A stretch of DNA of 26,491 nt from an uncultured bacterium (GTDB lineage Bacteria; Patescibacteriota; Minisyncoccia; Phycocordibacterales; UBA2100). Position 1 is the first letter of the stretch; each line of letters opens with the position of its first letter. Location of the stretch: NCBI GenBank assembly GCA_903881205.1, contig CAIRSC010000089.1, positions 1-26,491 on the forward strand, given 5' to 3'. Made by a program: the position numbers and the translations under genes. Shown piece after piece: positions 1,276 through 19,857 of the stretch. The notes beneath the pieces were generated by a model. It was given only the letters and a program-made list of their open reading frames with translations, was not told the origin of the DNA and ran no database searches.

Positions 1276-1277
1276 GT

Positions 1278-2330: not shown

Positions 2331-2334
2331 TCTG

Positions 2335-2853: not shown

Positions 2854-2877
2854 AGCGTTATATGTGCCTCGGGAGGC

Positions 2878-3552: not shown

Positions 3553-3595
3553 ATATACGGGCAATTATACTCCTGCTCACGCCGAACACAAACGA

Positions 3596-4015: not shown

Positions 4016-4023
4016 AGAGTGTG

Positions 4024-4031
4024 AGTATAAT
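4024..4031. promoter_or_regulatory. Overlapping bidirectional -10 element (TATAAT on +, TATACT on -) for hisS and the SET gene
   Basis: AGTATAAT lies in the 23-bp gap between the divergent ATGs at 4015 and 4039. Confidence 0.55.
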
Positions 4032-4038
4032 ACAAGAC

Positions 4039-5337: not shown

Positions 5338-5630
5338 CCCGCTCTAAGTTTTTTGGCTGGCATTATGCAGTACGTATATATTCTGCAAAGCTCGGCTGAC
5401 GACAACCTCTATGTCGGATGTACTTCTGATCTGCGCAAACGACTGCTTCTGCATAATGCGGGAAAGGTACAGGCAACCAAAAATCGCAGACCAATGAAAG
5501 TGATATACTACGAGGCCTTAATGAATAAGAAAGATGCGTTTGAGCGCGAAAAGTTCTTGAAGACCGGCTGGGGCAGGACGTACATAAGACGAGTTATGAA
5601 AAATCATTTTAGCCAAAAAATTTAGGCGGG
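5338..5630. mobile_element. GIY-YIG cassette bounded by ~20-bp imperfect inverted repeats
   Basis: cccgctctaagttttttggct (5338-5358) versus agccaaaaaatttaggcggg (5611-5630): 19 matches, 1 mismatch, 1 indel. The cassette is AT-richer than its flanks. Confidence 0.55.
5365..5625 (+). CDS. Small GIY-YIG nuclease family protein
   Basis: YVYIL...LYVGCTSDLRKRL..HN and AFEREKFLK.GWGR signature. Confidence 0.9.
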   Translation: MQYVYILQSSADDNLYVGCTSDLRKRLLLHNAGKVQATKNRRPMKVIYYEALMNKKDAFEREKFLKTGWGRTYIRRVMKNHFSQKI

Positions 5631-5633
5631 TAT

Positions 5634-6209
5634 ATGCGGGTCGTTACCTTCGACATAGAGACCGCGAACTGGCTTGCGGATACGGGTTCGAATGACCCGG
5701 CATCGCTCACGATCGCGATCGTCTGCGCGCACGATTCCGAGACAGACGAATATACGAGCTATCTTGAACACGAGCTGCCCAAGATGTGGAACATGCTGGA
5801 GCGCACTGATGTGCTTGTGGGCTACAATTCCGATCATTTTGATGTGCCGCTTTTGAACAAATATTATCCCGGCGATCTGACCAAAATAAAGAGTCTCGAC
5901 ATTATGAAAGAGGTCCAGGCGGTGCTGGGTCGCCGGCTGCGGCTCGACGCGATCGCGGAAGGCACGCTTGGCGTCAAGAAAAGCGGCAACGGCGGACAGT
6001 CGATTGTGTGGTGGCGCAACGGCGAGATCGATAAGGTGCGCCAGTATTGCCTCAAGGATGTAGAGATCACAAAGCGAATTTTTGATTATGCGCTCGAACA
6101 CGGTGGTGTGAGGTATCGGGAGCTCGGCAAGACCTACGACGTCAAGCTCGACGTATCAAAATGGCTCAATCCCGCCGGCGGCGCAATGACGTTTACGCTT
6201 GGGCTGTAA
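5634..6209 (+). CDS. RNase H-like 3'-5' exonuclease (DEDD/YprB-like)
   Basis: VTFDIET, VGYNSDHFD, SLD and YCLKDV motifs. Confidence 0.8.
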   Translation: MRVVTFDIETANWLADTGSNDPASLTIAIVCAHDSETDEYTSYLEHELPKMWNMLERTDVLVGYNSDHFDVPLLNKYYPGDLTKIKSLDIMKEVQAVLGRRLRLDAIAEGTLGVKKSGNGGQSIVWWRNGEIDKVRQYCLKDVEITKRIFDYALEHGGVRYRELGKTYDVKLDVSKWLNPAGGAMTFTLGL

Positions 6210-6294
6210 CGCTATTTTGAAAGCTCCCAGATAAGGTCGCTTTCAATGCACTCGAACCAAGGTTCTCGGCCCAAAAATCACTGCGTGTATGTTT

Positions 6295-6391
6295 GTGCAG
6301 AATACTTGCAATAGCTCGAACCAGCGCCGCCGGTGGGGGCGGCGGCGCAAAACCCCCGCAGGAAAACGGCGCGGCGAAGCCGCACCGCTGA
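6295..6391 (+). other. Distal att arm of element 1 encoding the alternative C-terminus of LSR1 (WC-RILAIARTSAAGGGGGAKPPQENGAAKPHR*)
   Basis: In frame with the LSR1 codons TGG TGC across the GTGC core. Stop TGA at 6389-6391. Confidence 0.75.
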
Positions 6392-6463
6392 CAATATCAA
6401 ATTTTTCTTTGGCGGAAAAGGTTCGAGTGCGCGTCTCGCGTACACAATTGTTCTTTACAACAT

Positions 6464-6494
6464 AGAAAGAACCCCTTGCCGAAGCAAGGGGTTC
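6464..6494 (-). terminator. Intrinsic terminator
   Basis: Perfect 11-bp stem gaaccccttgc/gcaaggggttc, a cUUCGg loop on the minus strand followed by TTTCT, downstream of ORF 6612-6836. Confidence 0.7.
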
Positions 6495-6611
6495 AGTAAC
6501 CAACACGAGGAAGGTTCTTATTCGCTCTCTATCCCGTAGGATAGTGAGCATTACCCTTTAAGAGATCCGAAGACCTCAACCTGTGTGTTGTGGTAAGTTC
6601 TTATCCGTCAT

Positions 6612-6836
6612 TTACCGTGACGTTTCCATGGAGACACTCTTGTATCCGAAGATCCGACCGATGAGGTCGGGAAGAATTGCATCGGCGAATGCCGTCAACT
6701 CTTCCTTCGAGATGCCAGTTTCCTTGGCGATATTTCCGAACCGACGCTTTGCTTCGTCGACGCTCGGAAGGCCGTTTTTGCTGGCGTATGTCTTCACCAG
6801 CTCAAGGGCGATTTCGCCTTGGCGTTTGCTATCCAT
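6612..6836 (-). CDS. Small hypothetical protein (cargo of element 1)
   Basis: MDSKRQGEIALELVK... ORF with GAGGAG 6 nt upstream of ATG 6836 and a terminator downstream. Confidence 0.6.
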   Translation of the reverse strand: MDSKRQGEIALELVKTYASKNGLPSVDEAKRRFGNIAKETGISKEELTAFADAILPDLIGRIFGYKSVSMETSR

Positions 6837-7000
6837 GTTTCTCTCCTCAAGGTACTTCATCCACGAAGCCCTCGTGGTAGGGGTCATCAGAGAATCTAAT
6901 GACTCTGTAATTTTACACCCTAAAGTATGAAGTTGTCAAGTGGTTGTGTGGACATCAAAAAATACCCATATTTACCAACGTATTTATTGCAATTGAGCGT

Positions 7001-7287
7001 ATGCCAAAAGAATTTTCTTTTTTCCAATTAACACATGGTTCGAGCCGATGGTTTTCCGGGCTCCTTGGCGGTTTTCGAGTGGTGCGGCTTTGCCGCGCCG
7101 TTTTCCTGCGGGGGTTTTGCGCCGCCGCCCCCACCGGCGGCGCTGGTTCGAGCTATTGCAAGTATTCTGCACCAGTTCGGAAATTGCAAGTCAGAGCTCG
7201 CCGCCGCGCAGGGCGCGGCGGCTCGCGCATAGTGCGGTTTCGGGTCAAAAACAAATTCGATTGGAAAAAAGAAAATTCTTTTGGCAT
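7001..7287. repeat. Composite repeat: 28-bp perfect inverted repeats enclosing an inverted, joined attP and recombinase-gene fragments
   Basis: 7001-7028 and 7260-7287 are perfect IRs. 7030-7056 = rc 8646-8672; 7056-7077 = rc 7451-7472; 7081-7172 = rc 6295-6386 (1 mismatch); 7169-7259 = rc 8682-8772. Confidence 0.95.
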
Positions 7288-7314
7288 TCCTTTAGCAATT
7301 AGAAACAACAAAAT

Positions 7315-8796
7315 ATGAAATACGTACTCTACGTACGAAAGAGCACTGAGGAAGATGACCGACAAGTATTGAGCATTGAAGCTCAGCTTGCTGAGCTGTC
7401 TTTGTATTCCGCCAAAGAAAAATTTGATATTGTTGCCTCCTTTGAGGAGGCGAAAACCGCCAAGGAGCCCGGGCGAACAAAGTTCGCAGAAATGCTGTCA
7501 TATATCGAGAGCGGGAAAGCAGAAGGCATCATATCGTGGCACCCTGACCGTCTCGCGCGCAATTCGGTGGACGGCGGCAAGATTATCCACCTGGTTGACC
7601 GTGGCTTGATTCGTTCCCTCAAATTCCCCACATTCTGGTTTGAACCCACGCCGCAGGGACTATTCATGCTCAATATTGCCTTTGGCCAATCAAAATATTT
7701 TTCTGACAATTTGCGAGAGAACGTGAAAAGAGGATTACGGCAAAAGATACGAAACGGGGTATGGCCCGGCTGGGCTCCGGCGGGGTACCTAAACAACCTC
7801 AAGACCCGAGGAATCGATGTAGACAACGCTAAGGCTCCAAAAGTACGGAAATTATTCGAATTGTACGCCACCGGAGCTTACACGCTCAACTCTCTCGCAA
7901 ATTGGTGCAAAGAAAACGGCTTGCGAGGCAACCGCGACAAGGAACTTCGCATATCCACCGTCCATCACGTCCTGAAAAATATTTTGTACATTGGCCTTAT
8001 GAAATACAACGGCGAGGTATTTGAGGGAACGCACGAGCCGATCCTGACAAAGAAACTTTTTGACCGAGTGCAGGAAATCCTCGCACAGCGGGGTAAAAAC
8101 CGCAGGGCCAAGCGGCGCACCTTTGCTTTTTCCGGCTTTCTCACGTGCGGCACCTGCACCTGCGCCATTACCGCCGAGCTACAGAAAGGACACACCTACT
8201 ACCGCTGTACCAAGAAAAAGCAAAAGTGCGACGAGAGATATATCCGCGAGGAAAAACTGACGGAGCAAATGCGGGGTTTCCTGCAAAAAGTTTCTTTGTC
8301 GAGCCAAGACACCGAGAAATGTTTGGCGGCGTTGAACAGCGAGGAAGCGCGAGCAAAAGAGGAATCACAGGGCGAAGTCCAACAACTGAAAACACAAACC
8401 GCAGACCTAGACACGAAGCTGGAAAAGTTGTTGGACGCTTACCTCACCGACGCGCTATCCACAGCGGAATACGCCGCCAAAAAAGAAAAGCTGGTGAACG
8501 AGAAAGTGCGCGTGCAAGAAAAAACCACCGACATCGAGACAAAAGGGGTGTCTTGGCTCGAACCGGCTCGTGAATTCGTTTTGTCTTTGAATCAAGCCAC
8601 GGTTCTGCTTTCCCGAAACGAAAAGAGCGAAATGACAGCGTTTCTGAAAACCATCGGCTCGAACCATGTGTTGCGTAATCGCGAATTTGTTTTTGACCCG
8701 AAACCGCACTATGCGCGAGCCGCCGCGCCCTGCGCGGCGGCGAGCTCTGACTTGCAATTTCCGAACTGGTGCCGAGAACCAGATTCGAACTGGTGA
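7315..8796 (+). CDS. Large serine recombinase LSR1 (resolvase, recombinase, zinc ribbon and coiled-coil domains)
   Basis: Catalytic motif YVRKS, DRLARN, zinc ribbon CGTC...YYRC...C. The last 10 codons overlap tRNA-Phe in antisense. Confidence 0.95.
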   Translation: MKYVLYVRKSTEEDDRQVLSIEAQLAELSLYSAKEKFDIVASFEEAKTAKEPGRTKFAEMLSYIESGKAEGIISWHPDRLARNSVDGGKIIHLVDRGLIRSLKFPTFWFEPTPQGLFMLNIAFGQSKYFSDNLRENVKRGLRQKIRNGVWPGWAPAGYLNNLKTRGIDVDNAKAPKVRKLFELYATGAYTLNSLANWCKENGLRGNRDKELRISTVHHVLKNILYIGLMKYNGEVFEGTHEPILTKKLFDRVQEILAQRGKNRRAKRRTFAFSGFLTCGTCTCAITAELQKGHTYYRCTKKKQKCDERYIREEKLTEQMRGFLQKVSLSSQDTEKCLAALNSEEARAKEESQGEVQQLKTQTADLDTKLEKLLDAYLTDALSTAEYAAKKEKLVNEKVRVQEKTTDIETKGVSWLEPAREFVLSLNQATVLLSRNEKSEMTAFLKTIGSNHVLRNREFVFDPKPHYARAAAPCAAASSDLQFPNWCREPDSNW

Positions 8797-8842
8797 CCCT
8801 TCCCTCTTCAGGGGAATGCTCTACCAACTGAGCTATCTCGGC
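8767..8842 (-). tRNA. tRNA-Phe(GAA) with encoded CCA
   Basis: GCCGAGA acceptor stem, TTCCC-CTGAAGA-GGGAA anticodon arm, TTCGAAT T-loop, ends GGCACCA. Confidence 0.97.
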
Positions 8843-8903
8843 AAATTCCGTCCGTTGGCTGGACGCCCATTAATATACCCGTCTTTGGCCCTTTTCTCAA
8901 TGA

Positions 8904-9218
8904 TTACTGTGCTGTTGTCGTTCCCGTCCCCATGCCGGGAATCTTGTTCTTGAATTGATTCCACGTATTTTCGAGGTCACTAAACTTCGTCTGCGCCTGC
9001 ACACTGGTCCCCTGTATCTGTTGGACCTCATCGAGCATGCGATTTACGACCGGCGCAAGATACGAAAGATAGAACCAGATCGGTGCCGCGAGCAGTGCCG
9101 CATATACGATGGTACGGATAATACCGCCCCAAAAAGCATTGCGCTTCATTGTGCGAAGCATCTTATTGTTCTCGAGCGTAAGGCGGTACGTCTCTCGAAT
9201 AAGATCATTTTCGGGCAT
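8904..9218 (-). CDS. Hypothetical single-pass membrane protein between the two tRNAs
   Basis: 104-aa ORF with one TM helix and coiled-coil character. TGgTACGAT lies 6 nt upstream of the ATG. Confidence 0.7.
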   Translation of the reverse strand: MPENDLIRETYRLTLENNKMLRTMKRNAFWGGIIRTIVYAALLAAPIWFYLSYLAPVVNRMLDEVQQIQGTSVQAQTKFSDLENTWNQFKNKIPGMGTGTTTAQ

Positions 9219-9282
9219 GGAGATATCGTACCATTTAAAACCAACACGCCCCGGAGGGCGTGTGGTAAAGTTGCCTCGTTAC

Positions 9283-9354
9283 CCCCTTGTAGCTCAATGG
9301 ATAGAGCAGTCCCGTCCTAAGGGAAAGATGTAGGTTCGATTCCTGCTAAGGGGA
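9283..9354 (+). tRNA. tRNA-Arg(CCT), no encoded CCA
   Basis: CCCCTTG/TAAGGGG acceptor, GCTC/GAGC D stem, loop GTCCTAA, GTAGG-TTCGATT-CCTGC T arm. Confidence 0.9.
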
Positions 9355-10867
9355 CATGACAATTCTGACCACCACCTGACGCCGATGTCAGTGTGAAGAT
9401 TGGCGCTAATTCGACGGTTTTGAATTCCGGATACTGGAACCCGACATTTTGGGGGAAGAAGAGGCTTATCAAAACCCTAAGCTCTCCAGGCTCCAGCGTT
9501 GCCCAACAATGCGGGAATTCTTTTACGAGGCTAATGCCGAACTTTACTGCTGACTCTACTGACTCCTCGGGGCTGATGAGTGCGCTCCTCTGAATTTCCA
9601 GATTCCGCTGCTCTGCTTGCTGCTTCTCACTTTTGCGAGCGTAGTCCTCGTTGGTAATCTTTCTCTCCAGCATCAGCTGCAATAAGGAATCTCTCTCCTC
9701 TTGCAGCTTTTCCATTCTCCTCTCAACTTTCTCTGCAAGACTCAAGCTCTCTTTGTTCTCTTTCTCATGGGCGATGATTATTGCTTCTCCTACTGCGTCC
9801 AACACGTTGGAATCCGGAGTAATGGATTCAAGGAATCTTGTGAAGTCATCTTCCATGTCCGTTTTAGCGATTGCTCTTCTGAGAGGACAACCGAAATTCA
9901 TGCAGCTGTAGTAACCGTACATTTTGCTTCTGCCCTTAGTACGACCTCCCGTCAGGTTTCCTCCGCAGCCACCGCACTTCAGCCCCCTGAGAGGAAAGTC
10001 AGGATTATTCCTACTGCGAGGCTGCTTACGAGATTTGCTGCCCTCCTTGAGAAGCTGCACCTTGAAATACAATTCCTTAGAAATGATGGGCTCATGTCTG
10101 CCTTGTACCGAGATGTTGAATTTTGGTATTTCGATCCAGCCGTAGTGGATTGGGTTCCGTAGGATGTTATATACAAGCTGCTTTCCTACTTTGCGGCCGA
10201 ATCTACTGCGGATATCTCCCATCGCATTAATCTTTTTAGCGATTTCCAGATAGGTCGTTGTGCCTCTTGCGAACTCCTCAAAGCAGAACTTAACGATGGA
10301 CGCTTTTTGAGGATGTGGGGTTATGGTCTTTTTACCGAGTTCATCCTTGCTGTTTTTATAGCCCCAAGGCGCAAGAACAGGCCAATATCCATCGAGGGCT
10401 TTTGCTTTCATGCCAGCGACAGCTCTCTCACCTCGGACATCATTGTCGAACTGAGCGATGACAGCCAGCATTCCCTCCGAGAGTCTTCCGTGAGAAGTGT
10501 TCTCAATCAATTCCGTGGCAGATCTTAGTTCGACCTTACACTCTCGGAGCACTAACTTTATTGCGAAGTGGTCTACTTGATTGCGAGCCAACCTATCGAC
10601 CTTGTAGACGATCAGGTACCCAATTCTCCCTACGTTTTTTATGCAGTGCTTCTGGAGGTTTTGTAGCTCCGTTCTGTCTGCATTCTTCGCTGACTCTCCT
10701 TCTTCACGAAACACCTGCAGAACCTCCCAGCCATTTTTATCCGCGTAGGCTCTGCAATCCTTTTCCTGATTCATGAGGCTGTATCCCCGCACTTGGTCTT
10801 CGGACGAGACACGCACATAGATGATGCAGGTCTTTGGACGCTCAACGCTCTTAATTTGTTTTTTCAT
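9317..10867 (-). CDS. Large serine recombinase LSR2
   Basis: YVRVSS, VDRLARN, zinc ribbon CGGC...YYSC...C and a coiled coil. The C-terminus VPLAGIEPTSFP* is read from the antisense strand of tRNA-Arg. Confidence 0.95.
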   Translation of the reverse strand: MKKQIKSVERPKTCIIYVRVSSEDQVRGYSLMNQEKDCRAYADKNGWEVLQVFREEGESAKNADRTELQNLQKHCIKNVGRIGYLIVYKVDRLARNQVDHFAIKLVLRECKVELRSATELIENTSHGRLSEGMLAVIAQFDNDVRGERAVAGMKAKALDGYWPVLAPWGYKNSKDELGKKTITPHPQKASIVKFCFEEFARGTTTYLEIAKKINAMGDIRSRFGRKVGKQLVYNILRNPIHYGWIEIPKFNISVQGRHEPIISKELYFKVQLLKEGSKSRKQPRSRNNPDFPLRGLKCGGCGGNLTGGRTKGRSKMYGYYSCMNFGCPLRRAIAKTDMEDDFTRFLESITPDSNVLDAVGEAIIIAHEKENKESLSLAEKVERRMEKLQEERDSLLQLMLERKITNEDYARKSEKQQAEQRNLEIQRSALISPEESVESAVKFGISLVKEFPHCWATLEPGELRVLISLFFPQNVGFQYPEFKTVELAPIFTLTSASGGGQNCHVPLAGIEPTSFP

Positions 10868-11207
10868 GGTTTTTATTTTTATTTTCTAAGGTGACGAATG
10901 CTACTTTCACTCCGATTGACTTGAATGCTGCAATTTTTTGGTTGCAGAACATCTTGTACTTATCGAGGTTCTCTGGACGATACACGATGAGGAGATTGAT
11001 TTCTCCCGCACTGTCTTTGGCGTACTGAAGTGCCGCAGGGATTTGCCCCTTCTTCCGCCTCCTCCAGTAACGCTCCCGAAACACCTTCGCAATCTTTAAG
11101 CCGTTTGCTTCCGCATACGCCAGACAATGCTTCTCTTGAGAGAGCAGATCATCGACTGCCCATTTTCCCCAGTAGTCTGTCCGAACGTACACTATTGCTT
11201 TTTTCAT
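10851..11207 (-). CDS. Stand-alone resolvase-like catalytic domain lacking the catalytic Ser
   Basis: MKKAIVYVRTD...Q...CLAYAEANGLKIAKVFRE...LLIVYRPENL. Aligns by eye with the LSR2 N-terminus and overlaps the LSR2 start by 17 nt. Confidence 0.7.
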   Translation of the reverse strand: MKKAIVYVRTDYWGKWAVDDLLSQEKHCLAYAEANGLKIAKVFRERYWRRRKKGQIPAALQYAKDSAGEINLLIVYRPENLDKYKMFCNQKIAAFKSIGVKVAFVTLENKNKNHEKTN

Positions 11208-11497
11208 ACTGTTATTTTCTAATTTAACCTCGTAATTTTTGTCTCTCACGACCGCCGCGCTTTTTCTGGATTCCCAGAACTGGCGGAACGACACCTAGAA
11301 CACCGAAAGTTGGATGGGGTGCTCTTCGCTCTGGCTTCCGTGGTTGCTCTCTGGGGAAACCAGTTTTGGGCTTTCAGCCACACGCTAGACCACCACTGAA
11401 GGTGCGAAACGGCAGGTTGGAGCGACTTATCAACCTCCCGCTGCATTTCTTGCTCTGAAGGTAGAAAGCACCACCCATCTTTTTCCCTTCGTAGAAG

Positions 11498-11534
11498 CTT
11501 CTTTATAAAGAAGTTCTTTATAGAACTTCTTATA
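11498..11534. repeat. AT-rich overlapping palindromes and short direct repeats (origin- or operator-like)
   Basis: 16-bp palindrome at 11498-11513, 10-bp IR at 11508-11517/11522-11531, and ttct(t)tata x3. Confidence 0.7.
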
Positions 11535-11538
11535 ATAA

Positions 11539-11925
11539 TTAGGATCTTTTTGGGTCTTTTCCGAAGCGGTCAATCTTCGCTTTAATGAAGTTTGCGGATT
11601 TTCGCACTTCCGCTGTCAATCTCCTGCCCGGAGTCTTTTTGACAAAGCCGCTTTCGATGATGTTGTCTTTTTCTAATCGTTCAAGCGTCGCTGCTATGTC
11701 CGATTCATTTCCGCCAGAGTACTCAGCAAGCTGTCCAAGCTTATAGAGGCAGTATTGATTGTGGCGCGTCATATTCTCGATTATCGAGAACAAGTGTCTC
11801 TCCAACGGCTCTTTTACGTCGTACTTCTTGCACAGACTGTGCATGATGAGGGAGTACTTTATTTCCTCTTTATCCTCCTGTGGTGGAGGCGGTATATTTT
11901 TAAGGTACTTCTTTGCATGTTCCAT
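11539..11925 (-). CDS. Hypothetical HTH protein, possibly the N-terminal domain of a phage-type replication initiator
   Basis: LGQLAEYSGGNESDIAATLERLEKDNII resembles a winged HTH. It lies directly upstream of the palindromic array. Confidence 0.45.
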   Translation of the reverse strand: MEHAKKYLKNIPPPPQEDKEEIKYSLIMHSLCKKYDVKEPLERHLFSIIENMTRHNQYCLYKLGQLAEYSGGNESDIAATLERLEKDNIIESGFVKKTPGRRLTAEVRKSANFIKAKIDRFGKDPKRS

Positions 11926-11969
11926 GTTTGTAATGTTTACTCTGACAACCTTTCAGCGCTGGTTCCCAC

Positions 11970-12158
11970 CTAGGGTGGTTCCTCTTGGTTGGTAGGGCTG
12001 CTTCTTTGTTTGGCCATCACTCTTGCCCAGATTCTTAGTAATTCTGGAGCTAGTAGAAGGCAAAAGTCAGTGATGTGCTGCGCCTCGACTTCGGTGTATT
12101 GATTTTTTTGGCGCAAAATTCTTAAGATTTTTTCACGCTCATCCGATGTGTGCTCCAT
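11970..12158 (-). CDS. Small hypothetical protein
   Basis: 62-aa ORF co-oriented with its neighbours and filling the gap between them. Confidence 0.4.
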   Translation of the reverse strand: MEHTSDEREKILRILRQKNQYTEVEAQHITDFCLLLAPELLRIWARVMAKQRSSPTNQEEPP

Positions 12159-12199
12159 GCACTTTGTGCAGAATTTCTCGGAATTTTCCTTACATCAAC

Positions 12200-12222
12200 A
12201 AAAAAGCCCCGATTTACGGGGT
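12200..12222 (-). terminator. Intrinsic terminator
   Basis: ccccg-taaat-cgggg followed by CTTTTTT on the minus strand, just after ORF 12248-13045. Confidence 0.6.
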
Positions 12223-12247
12223 CTGACATCCTCAGGAAAAGATTTGT

Positions 12248-13045
12248 TTATTCTAGGTAGGCTCGTTCCTCCCGTTGCTCTGGTAGGATTTCAAATACCA
12301 CCTGATATGCGTCCCCACCCAGAGGCTCAAGCGGTTCTCCCGTTAATCGTGGGAAAACCTCCTTGAGAAGCGTTTTGAGAAGATTGATTTGTTTTCTCTT
12401 GCTCTCTTTAGCGGTCTTGCTTGAAGACAATTTGATAAGCCCCTTGTTAGCCGCCGCTTCTTCCAAGATGTGCCACTGCTCCTTGGGGCGACCACCTTTC
12501 TTTTCAAGCCCAAGCTGCGAACATTCAACACCATTCCTAGCCCAACTCTTGGAGGCTATACCGGCATATAGAGTGCGTCCATCTATGAATCGCAGTTGCA
12601 GGGAGCGCCAGTCAGCATCGGCTGGCGTGTCATCAATCACTATATGACTTGGAGAGATGCTTTCTGGGAATGCCGCTACAGCGCGTTCTATAATCTTGTC
12701 CAAGTCATCTATCCATAGCATCAAACAATCCTTTTCATCGTCAAAGTGAACTCCTTCGAGTACTTCAAAAACCTCAGTGACCATCGTGCCGATGACAAGT
12801 CCGTCATGGTATATGGTTCCATTAAGAATGGTGATATAAGATTTCTCTTTTGCGATTCTAGCGTTCCAATGACCAATTAAGGTTTTTGCCTCTGGATAGG
12901 AAATGTGGATACTCTGTAACACCTGAAATGGAATCTTTACTAGGAGAGGCTTTGAGTCTGGAGATAATTTTGATTGTGTGACAATCACTCCAATGAGATC
13001 GCAAATTTGCCTTTCTTGCTTTTGCGTCAATTTGCCTTGCTCCAT
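12248..13045 (-). CDS. Hypothetical protein, possible C-terminal winged-helix DNA-binding domain
   Basis: Long ORF. The C-terminal WHILEEAA...RKQINLLKTLLKEVF...YQV pattern resembles OmpR-type wHTH tails. Start ambiguous (13045 or 13099). Confidence 0.55.
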   Translation of the reverse strand: MEQGKLTQKQERQICDLIGVIVTQSKLSPDSKPLLVKIPFQVLQSIHISYPEAKTLIGHWNARIAKEKSYITILNGTIYHDGLVIGTMVTEVFEVLEGVHFDDEKDCLMLWIDDLDKIIERAVAAFPESISPSHIVIDDTPADADWRSLQLRFIDGRTLYAGIASKSWARNGVECSQLGLEKKGGRPKEQWHILEEAAANKGLIKLSSSKTAKESKRKQINLLKTLLKEVFPRLTGEPLEPLGGDAYQVVFEILPEQREERAYLE

Positions 13046-13180
13046 ATAGAAAATAGTACAGGCAAAGTGCCAATACGCCACCACCTTTCCTTTCTGCAAT
13101 AGCGAGGTAAGCTTCTAGGACACATACCAAATATCGAAGAGATCTAAACCGTCAGCCTTCCAAAAGCAGGCGGCACGATC

Positions 13181-13308
13181 GCAAATCGTTGACTACAGAA
13201 AACCCGTCATTTAGGGCGTAGTCAACGTTGCAGAGGGAAACTTCTGTAGAGCCGCAAGGCTCCCTAGTGGCGGGCTTTATGTTTGCCCACCACTAATTAC
13301 GAATTAGT
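13181..13308 (+). ncRNA. Candidate structured RNA or leader (unassigned family)
   Basis: Consecutive stems: a 10-bp perfect stem (13187-13196/13218-13227), a GAAA-capped stem (13230-13247), a GCAA-capped stem (13249-13262) and two mutually exclusive 3' hairpins. Confidence 0.5.
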
Positions 13309-13323
13309 TGTGAGACAAGCATT

Positions 13324-13815
13324 ATGCACGTTGGACAAGTAATTGGTTTCATAAAGAGACAATGGTTAGCGGCAATCCTGATTATTCTTCTCATTCTCTT
13401 TTATCTATATTCTCAGAATTCCAACAAGCAAATTATTGATAATCAATTCAAATGCCAACAGCTTGCTAATCAGATCGAGCAGACAATACATTCCGACGAC
13501 ACTGGAATGTTTAGCATGTTGAGCGTGCTGAATGCTCATTTCAACTCCGAGACTCTACCTCCAGCGACGGCAACAAGTACGCCTGCCACTATCACAGGGG
13601 CTGATTTCTTCTATAAAGTCTTCTATAGTCGGAAATACAATTCCTGTTTGTACGCCCACTTTATCCGCGGAAAGGCTGTTGGAATTAACATGACACTTAT
13701 GTTGATTGATGACCTGCTTAGTGGCCAAAATGCGCTGTACATAGATGCCTCTCTTTCTATCTCAAATTCCGATGCGTATGCAGAACTTGAGAAACAAATC
13801 CCAAATTTTCAGTGA
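13324..13815 (+). CDS. Hypothetical membrane-anchored protein
   Basis: 163-aa ORF with an N-terminal TM helix (WLAAILIILLILFYLY) and a Cys pair. Confidence 0.7.
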   Translation: MHVGQVIGFIKRQWLAAILIILLILFYLYSQNSNKQIIDNQFKCQQLANQIEQTIHSDDTGMFSMLSVLNAHFNSETLPPATATSTPATITGADFFYKVFYSRKYNSCLYAHFIRGKAVGINMTLMLIDDLLSGQNALYIDASLSISNSDAYAELEKQIPNFQ

Positions 13816-14312
13816 TTGATATGAAATGGGGTAAACTTCCGGATTCAGGCCTCTTTAGAACTGCTGAACAGGGAGAAATGCTCAGACCATTTCTCATTCT
13901 AGCTTTTTCACTTATTGCCATAGTAGCTATTCTCTATAACACAAAAGATTCACCGGATAATCTACCCGCAAATGCACCTGCAACTGTCTTTGTTCCGCAG
14001 AGCGTAACTCCTGCAGAACAAAAGGCCGCAGTGGCGGGAATTGCAGCTCTAAAATGTCCAGAGGCATATGCCAACGATGTCGAAAGAGCAAAGGCTTTCT
14101 ATGAGTACTTCGACTATTTTTTTACGGTGTACCCGAATAAACACGGAATGTATGACTGGGACGCTGGCCGCATGGACTTCCTTATCTCACATCACTGCAC
14201 AACTACGCTTGTAGCCTATGGTTATGACGGGACAAGCCCGATAGACTCTGCGATTAGACAGAAGCTCATCAACAACGCTATGCAATCAGACCAAGCCACG
14301 AGCACGCCGTAG
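13812..14312 (+). CDS. Hypothetical membrane-anchored or secreted protein
   Basis: ORF coupled to the previous stop codon, with a hydrophobic segment and two Cys. Start ambiguous. Confidence 0.65.
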   Translation: MIDMKWGKLPDSGLFRTAEQGEMLRPFLILAFSLIAIVAILYNTKDSPDNLPANAPATVFVPQSVTPAEQKAAVAGIAALKCPEAYANDVERAKAFYEYFDYFFTVYPNKHGMYDWDAGRMDFLISHHCTTTLVAYGYDGTSPIDSAIRQKLINNAMQSDQATSTP

Positions 14313-14327
14313 TATCAGTAATGCCTT

Positions 14328-14540
14328 ATGCAAGAATCAGGCGATGTTCATTCCACGATACAACTGCTGACCATCAAGGAGGTTGCAGGGTTGCTGAAGA
14401 TATCTCAGATGACGGTACGTCGTTTGCAGCAGGGGCGGCATCTCCCGTTCATAAAGGTTGGCGGTAGTGTCCGTTTCGCCAAGAGTGACATTATTCAATA
14501 TCTAAAGAAACAGAGAATTGATTCAATCGATAGGTTTTGA
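14328..14540 (+). CDS. Excisionase-like HTH (MerR/HTH_17) DNA-binding protein
   Basis: LLTIKEVAGLLKISQMTVRRL...LPFIKVGGSVRF...I signature. Confidence 0.85.
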   Translation: MQESGDVHSTIQLLTIKEVAGLLKISQMTVRRLQQGRHLPFIKVGGSVRFAKSDIIQYLKKQRIDSIDRF

Positions 14541-14618
14541 GATTTGCTGGTCGTTGGGCTATTTACTAATTAAATAGTCAAGGAGCAGTACAGGAGCGGC
14601 CAGCAAATCTCAAAACCT
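14532..14618. repeat. 22-bp inverted repeat (21/22) with a nested AT-rich hairpin, between convergent genes
   Basis: aggttttgagatttgctggtcg (14532-14553) and cggccagcaaatctcaaaacct (14597-14618), with inner gctattta/taaatagt. Confidence 0.9.
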
Positions 14619-14632
14619 CCATTGGGGCTGCG

Positions 14633-14998
14633 CTACTCTTCAGGGATTGACGCATTGCTCTCATTGAGTGAGCGAATGAGCGCAAGGACGCTCAGCCCTC
14701 CTTGATGTTGCACTGTTTCCTTTGGCTTTCCCACCGTATGTTCAAGCAACAGGCGTGCGGCATTCACGTCAGGAGCCTTTGAGTAGACAAACTCTTCTCC
14801 ACCGTCAACCTCTTTGACAACACGCAAGCCAATAGCAGAATCTATGAGAGCGTCAAACAACTCTTTTGCGCGAGGCTTTAATTGCTTCAACATCAATTCA
14901 CGCATCTTTTGAGTCTCAAGCGTCCTTGGTGACATAGGAGCTCCGGCTCCCGCTCTTGCTCCTCCCCAAGTATTCTTTTTTAGTACCGCTGATTCCAT
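14633..14998 (-). CDS. Phage terminase small subunit-like protein
   Basis: N-terminal GGARAGAG and C-terminal PDVNAARLLLEHTVGKPKETV pattern recalled from small-terminase-like proteins. No search was run. Confidence 0.45.
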   Translation of the reverse strand: MESAVLKKNTWGGARAGAGAPMSPRTLETQKMRELMLKQLKPRAKELFDALIDSAIGLRVVKEVDGGEEFVYSKAPDVNAARLLLEHTVGKPKETVQHQGGLSVLALIRSLNESNASIPEE

Positions 14999-15068
14999 AG
15001 ATTTTCAAGTTTCAAGTTCGGAATGCCATTTAATTAAACCTCCGATTTCGTAATATGGATACTATTTC

Positions 15069-15566
15069 CTATTTCACTCGCGTTACATACCGAATTGGGA
15101 TAAGTTCATTCGTTTCTAAAAACTCGGAGCCCGACTGCGCCTTAATATGGGAATTCCCACCCGAAACTAAGATGTGGTATATAAAGGCGTCTTGGCCATG
15201 CTCCTGAAGGAAACTCAGTTCATTTCTAGAAACATAGATGGGCGACGAGAGAGAACTTGTAGTACTCTTCACCTCAATGTATTTCTCTCTGCCGTCCGTA
15301 AAAAATGACAAGACATCATAGCCTGCACCATCTCCATCTTCAGCGGCAACGTTGCGTACCCTGTCTGCCAAATCTTTTCTTCCGATGGACTCAAAAAAAT
15401 CCTGTTCTATTGCAACTGCAATCTCCTCTCCTCTGTCTCCGGTCAATTTCCTTGACCTATTTATTTCTTCCCAGTTAATCTTCCGTGCCGTTCTATAGAA
15501 TCTTTCAGGAGCAATTATTTCTTTCTGCTGTTGTGGTTCGGAAACATCCCTAACGAAATTGCGCAC
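15069..15566 (-). CDS. DUF3883 (NOV C-terminal) PD-(D/E)xK endonuclease domain protein, possibly N-terminally truncated
   Basis: GDRGEEIA...E...DGAGYDVLSF...KYIEVKST...NE motif. Confidence 0.8.
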   Translation of the reverse strand: MRNFVRDVSEPQQQKEIIAPERFYRTARKINWEEINRSRKLTGDRGEEIAVAIEQDFFESIGRKDLADRVRNVAAEDGDGAGYDVLSFFTDGREKYIEVKSTTSSLSSPIYVSRNELSFLQEHGQDAFIYHILVSGGNSHIKAQSGSEFLETNELIPIRYVTRVK

Positions 15567-15592
15567 CGAAGTAATCGCTCCACTTATTTTCG

Positions 15593-15880
15593 ATGCCCAT
15601 CTGGGTTCCTAAACCCCTAGGATTGAATCGTCAAATTATTAATCCCTACACAGGGAGCACGACCTCAGATTCCAACCAAGAGATAAACGGACAAACTTAT
15701 TATCATTTTAAAGGAGCTTTAAGAGATTCGATATACCCAACAAGAGCGAAGTCATTTGCGACTTTAAATCTACCCACCAGCAGCATGCATGGCACCTTCA
15801 CTTTCTTCTCTCAGATTGCCTGTGAAGATGGAGTGTTTCCGGAAAAGTTCGAAGACTCCCCTCTAACAGCAGCTGTATGA
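15593..15880 (+). CDS. Hypothetical ORF or gene remnant
   Basis: 95-aa ORF filling the gap between the two nucleases, with no recognisable motif. Confidence 0.25.
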   Translation: MPIWVPKPLGLNRQIINPYTGSTTSDSNQEINGQTYYHFKGALRDSIYPTRAKSFATLNLPTSSMHGTFTFFSQIACEDGVFPEKFEDSPLTAAV

Positions 15881-15935
15881 ACAGAGAACAATAACCATCA
15901 TCCAAATTATGGTTCAATAGCGTTAGAGTATTGAG

Positions 15936-17072
15936 TTACGCTATTAAATCTCTTATTTTCAATAAATCATGTCCGTCCACTAGCTTTACATTGTTCTTTT
16001 GTGCTAAAGCCTTAGCAGATGGAGTAAAAGTTGAGTTTGTAATTACCCAGCCCTCATTTCCACTGTAGTAGCTAACAGCACCGACAACCTCCTGAACAGC
16101 TTTGTTTCCAACAGTGCCTTGGTATCTTTTGGCTTGGATGACCAAAGTCTTCCCGCTTTTCTTAGCTAACAAATCAGCTCCCTGGTCTCCAGTAGTAGCA
16201 GTACCACTAACATCGTAACCACACTCCTTAAATATTTTTGATAGGTATGTTTCAAATTCAACACCAGAAAGGTCATTTAAGCTGATATCCTTTTTAGGGC
16301 TACCTTTTTGGGCTTCGTGGTATTCTCTAAAAATCTTCTCTAAGACCTTAGGCAAATCTCTATACTGATCTGGTACATTCCATGTATATCCTTTTTTAAA
16401 AAAGTCTTTTAATTTGGCATCACTAATACCGTCAATTACAGCCAGTTTTCTTATACAAGCTTCAATTTCCTTAGATAAAAGAACCCAGCTTTCATCTCCG
16501 TAGTCATCGATGATAGATACCTTTCTCTCTGTAATCTCAAGGAATTTATCTATTATATCTTTCCGGCCATCAAGAAAATGTCTTGCTTCACGCTCAGTCT
16601 TATCTTCGTATTCCTTTTCAGCTTGCTCCTGCCTTATTCTATTTTCCTCTACAATCTCCTTGTATCTCTCTTTAAATTTAGGCAGAAGAGAATTCTTCAA
16701 TTCAATATATTGAAGAGGAATACCCTGTCTCTTTTCCCATACAGGCAACCATTCTCTAGATTTAGGAGCTATGTTTGGAACCCTTTCTCTTATAGCAATT
16801 TCCTTTATACAATCACTCACCTGATTTTCTACATAATGAGGCCAGCTATCCTTTCTAAGGTTTTTTAGATGGTCTTCAATTAAAATCTGGTTTCTTTCCT
16901 CAAGCGATTTGGTCTTATCTAAATCTGCAACAGGGTATTTGTTTTCTAAATCCAATTGTGCCTTACGCGTAACAAAGTGGTTTTTACTAGATTCCTGTAT
17001 AGAGTTAATTACTGAGACTATACCCCAAATAATGAATCCAATGATGACCAGAGGTATGGCAAGTTCCTCCAT
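15936..17072 (-). CDS. Mrr-family (type IV-like) restriction endonuclease with N-terminal TM helix
   Basis: C-terminal LSGVEFE...GY.V...TGDQGADL...VIQAKRY...V..V...ITNSTFT..A...A....V.LVDG. AT-rich. Confidence 0.85.
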   Translation of the reverse strand: MEELAIPLVIIGFIIWGIVSVINSIQESSKNHFVTRKAQLDLENKYPVADLDKTKSLEERNQILIEDHLKNLRKDSWPHYVENQVSDCIKEIAIRERVPNIAPKSREWLPVWEKRQGIPLQYIELKNSLLPKFKERYKEIVEENRIRQEQAEKEYEDKTEREARHFLDGRKDIIDKFLEITERKVSIIDDYGDESWVLLSKEIEACIRKLAVIDGISDAKLKDFFKKGYTWNVPDQYRDLPKVLEKIFREYHEAQKGSPKKDISLNDLSGVEFETYLSKIFKECGYDVSGTATTGDQGADLLAKKSGKTLVIQAKRYQGTVGNKAVQEVVGAVSYYSGNEGWVITNSTFTPSAKALAQKNNVKLVDGHDLLKIRDLIA

Positions 17073-17162
17073 AAAATCATTTCTTACTATACGATAAATT
17101 TTAAAATCTCACAATAACCTCCAACCGCAGCTCTCTAATTACACAACTAGGTTTTAACTCCA

Positions 17163-17297
17163 TCAGGCTCTTGTTTCCTGAAGCTGAGCCATTGGCGTAA
17201 AGCCACGATTTTGGAGGCTGGCGAACTTTCCTGCCACAGAGCTAAGCGTCTGAAGGAACTGGACTATTGGTTTTGAGTTCTGTATCGTCAGGGGGAC
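17163..17297 (-). other. Distal att arm of element 2 encoding the alternative C-terminus of LSR2 (VP-LTIQNSKPIVQFLQTLSSVAGKFASLQNRGFTPMAQLQETRA*)
   Basis: A 45-codon open frame starting at the GTCCCC core, in the same frame as the LSR2 codons GTC CCC. Confidence 0.75.
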
Positions 17298-17536
17298 TAG
17301 ATCGCGAGCAATTCACGGATTCTAGGCTCGTCGAACCCGACGACGAACTGGTCGCCGATGGTGATCACCGGCACGCCCATCTGGCCGCTCTTATCAATCA
17401 TCTCCTTGCGCTTCTCGAGGTCCGTTGCAACATTGTAGTCGGTGAACGCCACGTTGTTGGCGGTGAAGAATTCCTTGGCCATGTGGCAGAAGTGGCACGA
17501 TGGCGTCGAATAAATCTGTACTGGTGTTGTGTTCAT
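17297..17536 (-). CDS. Glutaredoxin/NrdH-like redoxin
   Basis: YSTPSCHFC, GVPV and GFD motifs. Confidence 0.9.
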   Translation of the reverse strand: MNTTPVQIYSTPSCHFCHMAKEFFTANNVAFTDYNVATDLEKRKEMIDKSGQMGVPVITIGDQFVVGFDEPRIRELLAI

Positions 17537-17586
17537 GGTGTTTGTGTAAGGCGTATAAGCTACCCTCAGATTATATCACTGCAGGT

Positions 17587-18168
17587 TTAGGAACGAAGCG
17601 ATGTAAGCGCCTTGGACCACGAGATGAGCTGATCAAGCATGCCGTTGGCACGCTCATCGTACGAAGTGAACAGCTCTGCCTCCGGAGTGCCCTGCGAGGA
17701 GGCCATGATGACATCGAACGGCATGTGGACTGAATACTTTATGGGAGCCATTCCGAGCTCAATAACGACCGATCGCAGCTGCTCGATCGCTCGCGCACCC
17801 ATGGCACTGCCGTAGCTCACGAATCCAACTGCCTTGTTATTCCATTCCGACCCCACGTAATCAAGTGCATTTTTTAGTACGGCTGAATAGCCGTGATTGT
17901 ACTCGGGTGCGATGATGACGAACCCGTCTGCCTCAGCGACCTTGGCAGTCCACTTCACGACCGCAGGATCTGTGTACGGCTTTGTCTTGTAGCTGGGCGT
18001 CTCTGTCTCATTGAAAAACGGCATCGGGTAATCCCGCAGATCGAGCACCTCTATTTCGACCCCTTCTTTCTTTCCAAGAAGTGCGGTGATCCAGCGTGCA
18101 GGCTTTTCGGCGAAGCGGCCCTCGCGGGTCGATCCGACGATTACTTTGATCTTGAGTGGTTCAGCCAT
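17587..18168 (-). CDS. NADPH-dependent FMN reductase family flavoprotein
   Basis: GSTREGR, PEYNHGYSAVLKNALD and VSYG motifs. Confidence 0.9.
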   Translation of the reverse strand: MAEPLKIKVIVGSTREGRFAEKPARWITALLGKKEGVEIEVLDLRDYPMPFFNETETPSYKTKPYTDPAVVKWTAKVAEADGFVIIAPEYNHGYSAVLKNALDYVGSEWNNKAVGFVSYGSAMGARAIEQLRSVVIELGMAPIKYSVHMPFDVIMASSQGTPEAELFTSYDERANGMLDQLISWSKALTSLRS

Positions 18169-18255
18169 AATGAAATTATGTTATTTGATAGGACGTTCAT
18201 TGTACGCACGCAACTTTACTTTGTAAAGTGGATAATGCTATGGTAGCGTATTGCT

Positions 18256-18585
18256 ATGACCCTCAGAACCGCGCAGCAGAAAAAAGACCTCTGCCCCGGC
18301 TGCCCTGTCGCGCGCGTAGCCGACATTTTGGGTGATTCGTGTTCACTTCTGATCGTCCGCGACCTCCTCAGCACTCCCCAGCGCTTCTCACAGCTCGAAA
18401 CATCGCTTCGTGGGATCAGCACACGGACACTCACCAACAAGCTCAAACAACTCGAACACGAAGGAATGATAAAACGAAACGAATATACAAAACCGCAGCG
18501 AGTGGAGTATTCGCTTACCAAAAAGGGAGAGGCCCTGCACACTGTGATCGACGCGATGCGCTCATACGGGAAGAAGTATCTCTAA
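18256..18585 (+). CDS. HxlR-family transcriptional regulator
   Basis: CPV...ILGD...LIVRDL...RFSQL...GIS...L...LK.LE..G...R......VEYSLT.KG. Divergent from the FMN reductase. Confidence 0.9.
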   Translation: MTLRTAQQKKDLCPGCPVARVADILGDSCSLLIVRDLLSTPQRFSQLETSLRGISTRTLTNKLKQLEHEGMIKRNEYTKPQRVEYSLTKKGEALHTVIDAMRSYGKKYL

Positions 18586-18629
18586 CCCCGTGGGGGGGGG
18601 TTGGTACGAAGTTGGAACCAATATGTTAT

Positions 18630-19325
18630 TTACCGACGTCTAGCTGACCGTCGAAGGCCATCGGATAGTGCATATTCGTATAATGGACCGAAAAGCACAC
18701 CTGAAAGAAACCAGAAAACGAACTCCTCAATGGGAACGCCAAGGATGAGGATTCCACTAAGGTGTCCGAAATCGTACGTATGCTGAATCCAGGTCGGTGA
18801 AGCGTACGCAACACTAGCATAGAAGCTCGTGGATATTACTGCCATCAATACGCCGCTCATGAGCGCGTCCTTCCAGAGATCAGACCGGTTCCAAAAGATC
18901 ACTGCAATCGCCAAAATCATTGCAATGCTGCTGGCATAAAACGAAGTCAAACCTATCCCCCAAAACAACCAGGACATCATATAAGCCAGGAAAAGCAGTA
19001 TTGCCAATGCTCCGATGTGATGCGGCTTTGCCTTCACTCGATACAGCTGCCTCGAGAAGATGACCTCGTATGCGACAGCCATTATTCCGCCACTAAAAAA
19101 CCCTAGAATTAGGTCTTCGATACCAACACGGGTGCCTGTAATCGTTTGTGGATGCCACCAATCCTTGGTCCACCAGTAGTAGGCAGTCCACACACTGAGA
19201 ATTCCTATGAATGTTCCTGTATAGAGCATTTCCCTGCGCAGATCTTTTCTCCAGAAGTAGAAAAGAGACCATACTATCGCAAAAGGTATGCAACCGACTA
19301 AATAGACAAGATTCGTCGGAATCAT
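18630..19325 (-). CDS. Lycopene cyclase domain-containing membrane protein
   Basis: Two repeated hydrophobic halves ending G.EDL.LGF and GVPIEEFVFW. Confidence 0.65.
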   Translation of the reverse strand: MIPTNLVYLVGCIPFAIVWSLFYFWRKDLRREMLYTGTFIGILSVWTAYYWWTKDWWHPQTITGTRVGIEDLILGFFSGGIMAVAYEVIFSRQLYRVKAKPHHIGALAILLFLAYMMSWLFWGIGLTSFYASSIAMILAIAVIFWNRSDLWKDALMSGVLMAVISTSFYASVAYASPTWIQHTYDFGHLSGILILGVPIEEFVFWFLSGVLFGPLYEYALSDGLRRSARRR

Positions 19326-19490
19326 CGTACGATAATTATAACCCTGGCGATACGTTAGTTTCCAATTTTCCCCAACTCTTACGATTTGGCCGTCTTTACC
19401 TGCGTACCGGCAAATCAGGACAATACTCGCGCTGACAATTGAGACTTAGAATCTTCATAAAACAAGCCTCTCGATAGGGTTTCCTAATAT

Positions 19491-19516
19491 GTGCGGGCGG
19501 CGGGAATCGAACCCGC
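19491..19516 (-). pseudogene. 3' fragment (T arm plus acceptor strand) of a second tRNA-Gly-like gene
   Basis: The reverse complement reads GCGGG-TTCGATT-CCCGC-CGCCCGC-A. No D or anticodon arm upstream. Confidence 0.6.
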
Positions 19517-19577
19517 AGCTAATCCGAGGGAATGAAAAGTGACGAAGGCAGCTTTTCATCATTTTGCCACTATTTGG

Positions 19578-19595
19578 GTGCGGGTACGGGGAATC
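19578..19595 (-). repeat. 18-bp direct repeat of the tRNA-Gly(CCC) 3' end (att-like scar)
   Basis: gtgcgggtacggggaatc is identical at 19578-19595 and 19725-19742. Confidence 0.9.
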
Positions 19596-19660
19596 AAGTC
19601 AGGCGTAATTTTCTGCTGAAAATTCGCACGACCCTGCCTCGGCGCCGAGCGCCTGCGGCC

Positions 19661-19707
19661 GTTCGATTCCCGACGCGAAGCACGCTGTGCTTCGCTTACC
19701 CGCACAA
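19661..19707 (+). repeat. Inverted tRNA-Gly 3' end split by a 9-bp hairpin
   Basis: gttcgattccc (rc of 19736-19746), then gcgaagcac-gct-gtgcttcgc, then tacccgcacaa (rc of 19723-19733). Confidence 0.85.
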
Positions 19708-19725
19708 TATTCGCTTCGCTCTTTG

Positions 19726-19796
19726 TGCGGGTACGGGGAATCGAACCCCGCTCTCAACCTTGGGAAGGTCGCATTCTACCACTAAACCATACCCGC
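19726..19796 (-). tRNA. tRNA-Gly(CCC), no encoded CCA
   Basis: GCGGGTA/TACCCGC acceptor, CGACC-TTCCCAA-GGTTG anticodon arm, CGGGG-TTCGATT-CCCCG T arm. Confidence 0.95.
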
Positions 19797-19857
19797 AAAA
19801 TTTGTACGCCCGCGACTTTGGTAATGTAACAAAAAACGCACACGAGGGCGAGCTGCG

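Follow-up and report, generated by a model that had tools for sequence, protein, structure and literature searches.

The serine integrases of A118/LI, SPbeta (SprA), Bxb1, phiC31 and TP901-1 share a common fold and one set of domains: a catalytic serine domain, a recombinase domain and a zinc ribbon with a coiled coil. They use short attachment (att) sites with few common bases, and their genes lie at the edge of the element. Descriptions of these systems place attP outside the integrase gene, the direction of recombination is set by a separate protein, the recombination directionality factor (RDF), and their targets are mostly protein-coding or intergenic. In this report, we analyze one complete contig of 26,491 nucleotides (the window) from a genome of 0.8 Mb in 113 contigs; the relatives of the window in the public genome collection are Patescibacteria. 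The window carries an island at a tRNA-Arg gene, and the large serine recombinase (LSR) of this island, LSR2, resembles the integrases above in domain set, fold and position at the element's edge, and possibly in its type of att site. LSR2 differs from them in that it targets tRNA 3' ends and in that its gene spans attP, such that integration splits it. We regard this architecture, a gene that spans attP and is split by integration, as almost certain.

Serine integrases have been stated to be not known to target tRNA genes (Islander paper, PMC4383910). The sole serine-integrase precedent that we found for a gene spanning attP is the SPbeta-like phage Goe14, in which attP lies within the region that codes for the integrase's C terminus and integration into spoVK truncates the enzyme, with a loss of 131 amino acids; no sprB-type RDF was found, and its authors offer the speculation that the long form is the integrating and the short form the excising one (bioRxiv 10.1101/2021.11.22.469490). 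Likened by description to LSR2, Goe14 is a single phage with a protein-coding target and no tRNA-encoded replacement tail, and neither family-wide conservation nor a structural site was proposed for it, unlike for the clade of LSR2. In the myxophage Mx8 (IntP/IntX), attP lies inside int, integration supplies a new 3' end, and the altered integrase is reported to remain active with changed properties (PMC6070905). A passage of the Islander paper (PMC4383910) presents the SSV1 integrase gene as extending across attP and as being parted by integration into a tRNA gene. Both enzymes are tyrosine recombinases, that of Mx8 from a single phage lineage and that of SSV1 from archaeal viruses, and their likeness to LSR2 is in layout only. 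The SSV1 gene is split near its 5' part, and the outcome is a broken enzyme and not the replacement of a short tail. A further parallel is integration-dependent immunity in the mycobacteriophages BPs and Brujita and in corynephage CyranoPS. There too, a tRNA gene is targeted, attP is situated within a gene's 3' end, and the C terminus of a regulatory protein depends on the integration state. However, the protein that is truncated is the repressor and not the integrase, which is a tyrosine recombinase.

The LSR2 island and its integrase gene

The features of the island's two ends are as follows, in window positions.

9283-9355, plus strand: intact tRNA-Arg(CCT), predicted by ARAGORN; the 3' end serves as the B half-site
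9317-10867, minus strand: LSR2, integrated isoform, 516 amino acids, with Resolvase, Recombinase and zinc-ribbon domains (Pfam) and a coiled coil
9317-9349, minus strand: tRNA-encoded tail LAGIEPTSFP and stop, antisense to the acceptor stem, T arm and anticodon stem-loop
9350-9355: left copy of the core GGGGAC, comprising the last 4 acceptor-stem bases, the discriminator and one base
9356-17291: island interior, marked by composition and by the span that is skipped exactly in a contig of lake-water run X4
17163-17297, minus strand: distal arm, comprising the core codons V-P, 42 free-form tail codons and a stop (17163-17165); also the P' half of attP
17292-17297: right copy of the core GGGGAC, located by the repeat match, by the joint in the X4 contig and by the empty attB in relatives
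17297-17536, minus strand: glutaredoxin gene (PF00462), the B' flank; its stop codon (17297-17299) starts at the final core base

LSR2 is, by its domains and conserved residues, a complete LSR. Its catalytic domain (PF00239, E 8.9e-32) contains the motif YVRVSS. In a 70-sequence alignment, S21 is invariant and S22 is conserved in at least 90% of rows, both of them within this motif, and R19, R65, R92 and R95 are invariant. The recombinase domain (DBD1) matches PF07508 (E 1.4e-11). The zinc-ribbon domain (DBD2) matches PF13408 with an E value of 4.7e-4, a score under the Pfam cut-off; in the same alignment, its cysteines C298, C301 and C327 are invariant, and C322 is found in at least 90% of rows. 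A sequence search for solved relatives returned TP901-1, TnpX and A118.

The protein ends in ...HVPLAGIEPTSFP; tRNA-Arg(CCT), read in antisense, supplies the final 10 codons and the stop. The two genes converge, with a 39-nt antisense overlap at the 3' terminus of LSR2, and the LSR2 stop codon (9317-9319) falls in the anticodon loop of the tRNA.

Composition and empty sites delimit the island. G+C content is 0.37-0.48 between the two cores, as against 0.50-0.59 in the flanks. For the comparison of empty sites, assembled contigs of four lake-water runs from one study were aligned to bases 1-20000; X1 and X4 are two of these runs, X4 being from another lake sample. A 7721-bp contig of X4 matches, as one continuous sequence, 427-5338, 5634-6294, 8769-9349 and 17292-18470. 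In it, 17292 directly follows 9349, and 6 letters at the joint could belong to either side. In three congeneric species (G012, G003 and G004), attB reads as tRNA-Arg(CCT) ending in GGGGAC, directly followed by TAGA..., where the glutaredoxin gene stops. The insertion thus amounts to 7942 bp (9350-17291), one core copy included. We conclude from these comparisons that 9350-17291 is an integrative island inserted by its own LSR2 at the 3' end of tRNA-Arg(CCT). The crossover is placed inside the core, at the last bases of the tRNA, and the tRNA therefore remains whole. The predicted empty site is ...CTAAGGGGACTAGATCGC, and the predicted circle junction is GAATTGTCATGTCCCCCTGACGATACAG. Dyad symmetry of attP about the core is modest (12/20, compared with 10.1 +/- 1.0 in shuffles), and the symmetry of attP and attB was not used as evidence.

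On the minus strand, the frame that starts at 17297 reads VPLTIQNSKPIVQFLQTLSSVAGKFASLQNRGFTPMAQLQETRA and stops at 17163-17165. When the body of LSR2 is joined to this arm at the core, the product is a protein of 548 amino acids. An open frame of 44 codons has by itself a probability of about 0.06 in shuffles of the same intergenic stretch, and what raises the frame above chance is the evidence from the empty sites and from the conservation of the arm. A first-pass annotation, made from the letters of the window, had claimed that the LSR2 C terminus is read from antisense tRNA-Arg, that the core recurs at the far end of the island, and that a frame in register there gives 548 instead of 516 amino acids. 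ARAGORN and the open reading frame (ORF) coordinates agree with the first of these claims, both core copies were located, and translation confirmed the frame. Its expectation that removal of the island would put tRNA-Arg against the glutaredoxin stop is borne out by the joint in the X4 contig and by the three congeneric species.

The arm is conserved in a second insertion. Locus L005 carries at tRNA-Ile(TAT) an LSR 81% identical to LSR2 (protein P0002), which occurs on two groundwater contigs. Its arm (L005:1727-1858) lies 9.2 kb upstream of the integrase on the same strand and is in frame through a 4-bp core, GTCC, as compared with the 6 bp that are common here. The arms of L005 and the window are identical in 43 of 44 amino acids. 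They have nine nucleotide differences with one amino acid change, and a serine codon differs as AGC versus TCG. Similarity between the two loci stops 17 nt past the stop codon of the arm, and the genes beyond are unrelated (an Mrr-type nuclease in the window versus a sigma factor in L005). The arm thus moves with the integrase gene and not with the cargo. About 17 nt behind the tail stop (17146-17162 in the window, TGATGGAGTTAAAACCTAG and variants) are conserved in L005, L102 and L103 despite different next genes.

An unbroken relative of 557 amino acids (P0029), 48% identical to LSR2 and encoded on a contig without a tRNA, has a tail that reads ...VTLTMQNSKPIIQFLQSLSAVAGKFASLQNRDSVPMALLQETLP and is 79% identical to the window's arm. 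Purifying selection on the arm is indicated by Nei-Gojobori omega values of 0.18 (window versus L005) and 0.16 (window versus P0029, with a synonymous divergence, dS, of 0.98), similar to the value of 0.15 for the gene body. More arms were found in JGI metagenome contigs (L102 and L103/L104), and an exact scan with an arm-only pattern yielded four loci. In alignment A4, 14 tails align readily, and 10 of the 14 have exactly 44 residues, counted from the V. A MAFFT alignment of the short arms with full-length proteins (A2) left the arms scattered and was discarded. A word search of a large protein collection with the P0029 tail region found no protein besides P0029. From these comparisons, the distal arm is real coding sequence and a part of the LSR2 gene, and the conservation of the 42-residue tail under purifying selection, on which the first-pass annotation had staked its reading, was found in L005, P0029, L102 and L103.

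Between LSR2 and P0002, dS drops from 1.45 in the 5' third of the gene to 0.39 in the 3' third and 0.20 in the arm. This gradient suggests recombination that keeps the attP-proximal gene end and the arm together.

Relatives of LSR2 and the companion element at tRNA-Phe

The protein search yielded 114 full-length homologues, and the C terminus of 97 of them reads ...V-x-x-x-G-[IVF]-E-P..., as encoded by a tRNA T arm in antisense. The few exceptions carry longer tails with a helix motif, NSKP-h-h-x-F-L in a close group and SWN-x-h-x-x-W-L in a distant one. When one genome per species was scanned, 339 loci emerged, 80 of which were fetched. In 57 of these 80, an antisense tRNA (Glu, Ala, Lys, Val or Arg, by ARAGORN) contains the stop codon of the integrase. 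A hidden Markov model (HMM) built from the unsplit tails was then searched against upstream flanks, blind to frame and core, and revealed in-frame arms in 14 further loci, 4-11 kb upstream of the integrase and on the same strand. In all 14, a 5-17-nt match to the junction of integrase and tRNA falls on the first codons of the arm, and the core lies at most 5 nt (mostly 3) from the tRNA's 3' end. These loci are labelled Patescibacteria, Acidobacteriota, Verrucomicrobiota and Nitrospira. The automatic core finder returned spurious cores for L005, L013, L024, L044, L055 and L060; the core of L005 was set by eye, and the others were not counted. The first-pass annotation had suggested looking for tRNA-derived tails and matching distal arms among LSRs of the Candidate Phyla Radiation (CPR). 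The result is a large, apparently undescribed clade of tRNA-targeting serine integrases with this design; in the open-access literature, we found no description of such a clade or of an exchangeable tail.

Some loci carry more than one arm or element. Two or more arms occur in a row upstream of one integrase in L070, L064, L055 and L017, as if left by successive elements at the same tRNA. In L100, an unsplit LSR lies just upstream of a second element, the LSR of which is split at tRNA-Glu; tandem insertion therefore also regenerates continuous genes.

The window itself contains a companion element, which belongs to a second integrase, LSR1.

6295-8768: LSR1 element at tRNA-Phe, with a length of 2474 bp; the X4 contig omits exactly this span (4 letters in common at the joint), as does an X1 contig
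7315-8796, plus strand: LSR1, integrated isoform, 493 amino acids, with its C terminus from antisense tRNA-Phe (8767-8842, minus strand)
7078-7259, minus strand: inverted copy, inside the element, of the LSR1 circle junction as reconstituted (intact attP), in repeats I1 and I2

LSR1 and LSR2 are 27% identical. Joining 8772 to 6299 turns LSR1 into a 516-amino acid protein with a different tail. The segment 7078-7259 is identical in 180 of 182 bases to 8682-8772 joined to 6299-6389, and this inverted copy of the junction therefore indicates that the joined form of LSR1 has existed as DNA. The tail HMM gave no significant match to the reconstituted LSR1 tail (E 0.08), and an N-W motif alone is common to the two. 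LSR1 thus has the same layout as LSR2, with a tail that has no recognisable homology to that of LSR2. That two divergent integrases at two tRNAs have this layout, as a conserved gene architecture, was a central claim of the first-pass annotation; it holds, and the X4 contig lacks the LSR1 element as well.

Upstream of LSR1 (7001-7287 and 6295-6417), the sequence consists of assorted fragments of LSR1 in inverted orientation (repeats I1-I5 and I8). Logan contigs break at the LSR1 repeats, and the internal order given here is that of the original assembly.

Island cargo and other variable segments

The remaining genes of the LSR2 island are listed below.

10851-11294, minus strand: small resolvase-like paralogue without the catalytic serine, overlapping the LSR2 start; weak PF00239 match
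11539-13099, minus strand: backbone genes of 128, 62 and 283 amino acids, common to the tRNA-Ile element (tblastn against L005, L024, L017 and L023)
13324-14312, plus strand: two ORFs of 163 and 166 amino acids, the latter common to L005 and L004
14328-14540, plus strand: HTH_17 (excisionase-like) DNA-binding protein, 70 amino acids (Pfam PF12728, E 1.4e-13; PHROG excisionase and HTH families)
14633-14998, minus strand: ORF of 121 amino acids, with weak relatives in the L008 and L028 islands
15069-15566, minus strand: NOV_C-domain protein, defence-candidate cargo (PF13020; PADLOC PDC-S36 and PD-T4-1)
15936-17072, minus strand: protein with an Mrr-type nuclease domain behind a long N-terminal extension, defence-candidate cargo (PF04471; PADLOC models for ZorD-like nuclease, PDC-S02 and type IV REase)

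The serine-less paralogue has counterparts directly upstream of the integrase in L005 (9048-9398), L099 (3978-4361) and L100 (7169-7561). Searched with tblastn, it matched L005 only, and the counterparts in L099 and L100 came from gene calls and alignment. In the four related elements, YVRTD, YVRDY or YVRTY replaces YVRVSS, and the long E helix is also absent. A role as a regulatory partner is possible. The HTH_17 protein is a candidate directionality factor or regulator, to judge from its family; its gene was not conserved in the related islands searched with tblastn. As regards a reading of the island as a phage satellite, a PHROGs search found no capsid, structural or packaging family, and most ORFs had no match; the matches obtained were limited to HTH/excisionase-like families, a nuclease and a weak replication-initiator match, the last of these to the 128-amino acid ORF.

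Other segments of the window also vary. A 295-bp cassette (5339-5633) is precisely missing from the X4 sister-strain contig and from an X1 contig, and this presence/absence polymorphism indicates that it is probably mobile. ARAGORN predicts one more tRNA in the window, tRNA-Gly (19725-19796, minus strand). Near it, the sister strain differs at 18471-19490, and 21 other bases replace 19533-19804. Incomplete copies of the tRNA-Gly 3' end are repeated at 19490-19532, 19578-19595 and 19724-19766 (repeats D4 and D7); they look like scars of earlier insertions at this third tRNA.

Predicted structure and possible roles of the exchanged tail

The fold was computed with AlphaFold2 (AF2) on the relative P0029. 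In this model, helices 362-409 and 415-439, with predicted local distance difference test (pLDDT) scores above 90, form a long coiled coil, and the strands of the ribbon are also visible. Foldseek matched the model to full-length chains of SPbeta-type, Bxb1 and phiC31 integrases (E 5e-17 to 1e-12) and also to the A118 integrase structure. Confident structure stops about 10 residues before the crossover; therefore, the exchange of tails removes no folded domain. When the tRNA-encoded tails were trimmed from the alignment, the main tail helix of P0029 (521-542) was predicted with a pLDDT of 73-81. A model of the complex between LSR2 residues 1-504 and the window's 44-residue arm scored 0.61, as against 0.00 for the best of three controls. 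In the calibration of the tool, 58 of the 80 solved complexes reached the mark of 0.61, as did 2 of the 110 pairs that were mismatched, which is a rough guide here, as our own alignments were used. The modelled interface comprises residues 359-367, 436-448, 454-469 and 488-490, which make up the DBD2-proximal stretch of the coiled coil and the helices next in sequence. RDFs have been reported at the DBD2-coiled-coil junction, and C-terminal extensions of some serine recombinases might occupy the RDF site (PMC12286644).

The layout, and the scheme that we propose from it, are as follows. The attP site lies inside the 3' end of LSR2, just past the last folded domain. In the free circle, the gene would be continuous and would encode 548 amino acids, ending in the conserved 42-residue tail with its amphipathic helix. 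Integration parts the gene at the core (GTCCCC on the coding strand), leaving by the tRNA a body that ends in 10 antisense-tRNA residues (516 amino acids) and moving the tail codons 7.9 kb off, to the far end of the island beside the glutaredoxin stop. The tail helix may fold back on the junction of DBD2 and the coiled coil, and the free-form enzyme, with its own occupant on the RDF site, would then be set for attP x attB integration. In the integrated, tail-less enzyme, the RDF site would be exposed, making the enzyme either excision-competent or open to a separate factor, for which the HTH_17 protein and the serine-less paralogue are the candidates on the island. The integration state itself would thus rewrite the enzyme that reverses integration. 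Taken as a whole, a split gene with functionally different isoforms is the explanation that we consider best, and we hold it with moderate confidence. That the tail has a regulatory role is a more tentative proposal, which falls somewhat short of an even chance. The specific version, in which the free-form tail is a built-in directionality element at the DBD2-coiled-coil junction, either playing or blocking the part of an RDF, is slightly more doubtful still. We infer that the tail matters because it is kept as protein across phyla and because the model places its helix at the RDF site.

Several points weigh against this scheme. The docking depends on one complex model, made with our own alignments, and on a second fold of moderate confidence; with the tRNA tails left in the alignment, AF2 gave the tail a pLDDT of 38-48 and did not place it. 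The predicted circle junction was absent in exact scans of JGI metagenome contigs and IMG/VR and was likewise not present in the assembled contigs of the runs. Some of the "unsplit" database proteins are junctions of tandem elements, as in L100, rather than products of free circles. A classical RDF favours excision, which is the wrong direction for the free form; the tail may consequently act as a blocker rather than as a mimic. Finally, the excisionase-like HTH protein on the island could be what ordinarily controls direction.

In one alternative, the gene is indeed split, but nothing is regulated by the split: the overlap of attP and gene would reflect compactness, a separate factor, for example the HTH_17 protein, would determine direction, and the tail would be an ordinary part of the enzyme, needed or tolerated for integration, whose exchange is irrelevant to the integrated form. 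Besides the presence of the excisionase-like gene, this account is favoured by the position of the crossover in a disordered linker, with the catalytic and DNA-binding domains surviving in both isoforms, and by the first nine or so tail codons doubling as the P' half-site, which alone would conserve some sequence. Conservation of the protein over 42 residues, at an omega of 0.16, exceeds the half-site, however, and the same helix pattern occurs from CPR to Acidobacteriota with unrelated DNA. In addition, the layout is kept across a clade of several phyla, the model puts the helix on the RDF site, and HTH_17 is not conserved in the related islands searched. We therefore consider this alternative rather unlikely, but it is the most serious of those considered.

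A different possibility is that the integrated isoform is inactive, unstable or poorly expressed, and that the island stays fixed as long as no full-length enzyme is provided in trans. Expression might be poor on account of an mRNA whose 3' end is antisense to an abundant tRNA, with transcription converging on the tRNA gene, and LSR2 and its tRNA do converge, with their 39-nt overlap. In SSV-type systems, the split integrase gene is non-functional in the provirus, and arm stacks and tandem elements (L070, L064, L055 and L100) are what would be expected if resident copies accumulate. Yet nearly all of the approximately 80 genome loci contain an integrated gene that is intact and of full length, and these genes are under purifying selection. 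Moreover, presence/absence polymorphism in the sister strain and the different tRNAs used by close relatives show recent mobility. We judge such a lock improbable. Least credible is that the arm is a chance open frame or the decayed remnant of an older, unrelated integrase gene. The frame is short enough to arise occasionally in shuffles, and the common core is just 6 bp. Nevertheless, the arm lies exactly at an island boundary set by empty sites, has 43 of its 44 amino acids in common with the arm of a separate insertion at a different tRNA, runs on from the gene without a break in P0029 and is under purifying selection. We reject this explanation as having a negligible chance of being correct.

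There are consequences on several levels. The use of tRNA genes by this clade, as in the 57 of 80 loci, shifts the accepted view (cf. PMC4383910). Most database entries of the clade represent the integrated isoform with a tRNA-translated tail, such that synthesis from annotation gives a chimaeric C terminus without the native tail, and pipelines that seek attP outside genes will miss the attP of this clade. If the docking of the tail holds, direction would be controlled without a further protein, by the state of the DNA, as opposed to the usual control by a separate protein; this would be relevant to integrase-based memory switches and genome-insertion tools. If the tail is indeed a built-in directionality element, a large tRNA-targeting clade would switch between integrating and excising forms of its integrase by recombination that rewrites the gene's own 3' end.

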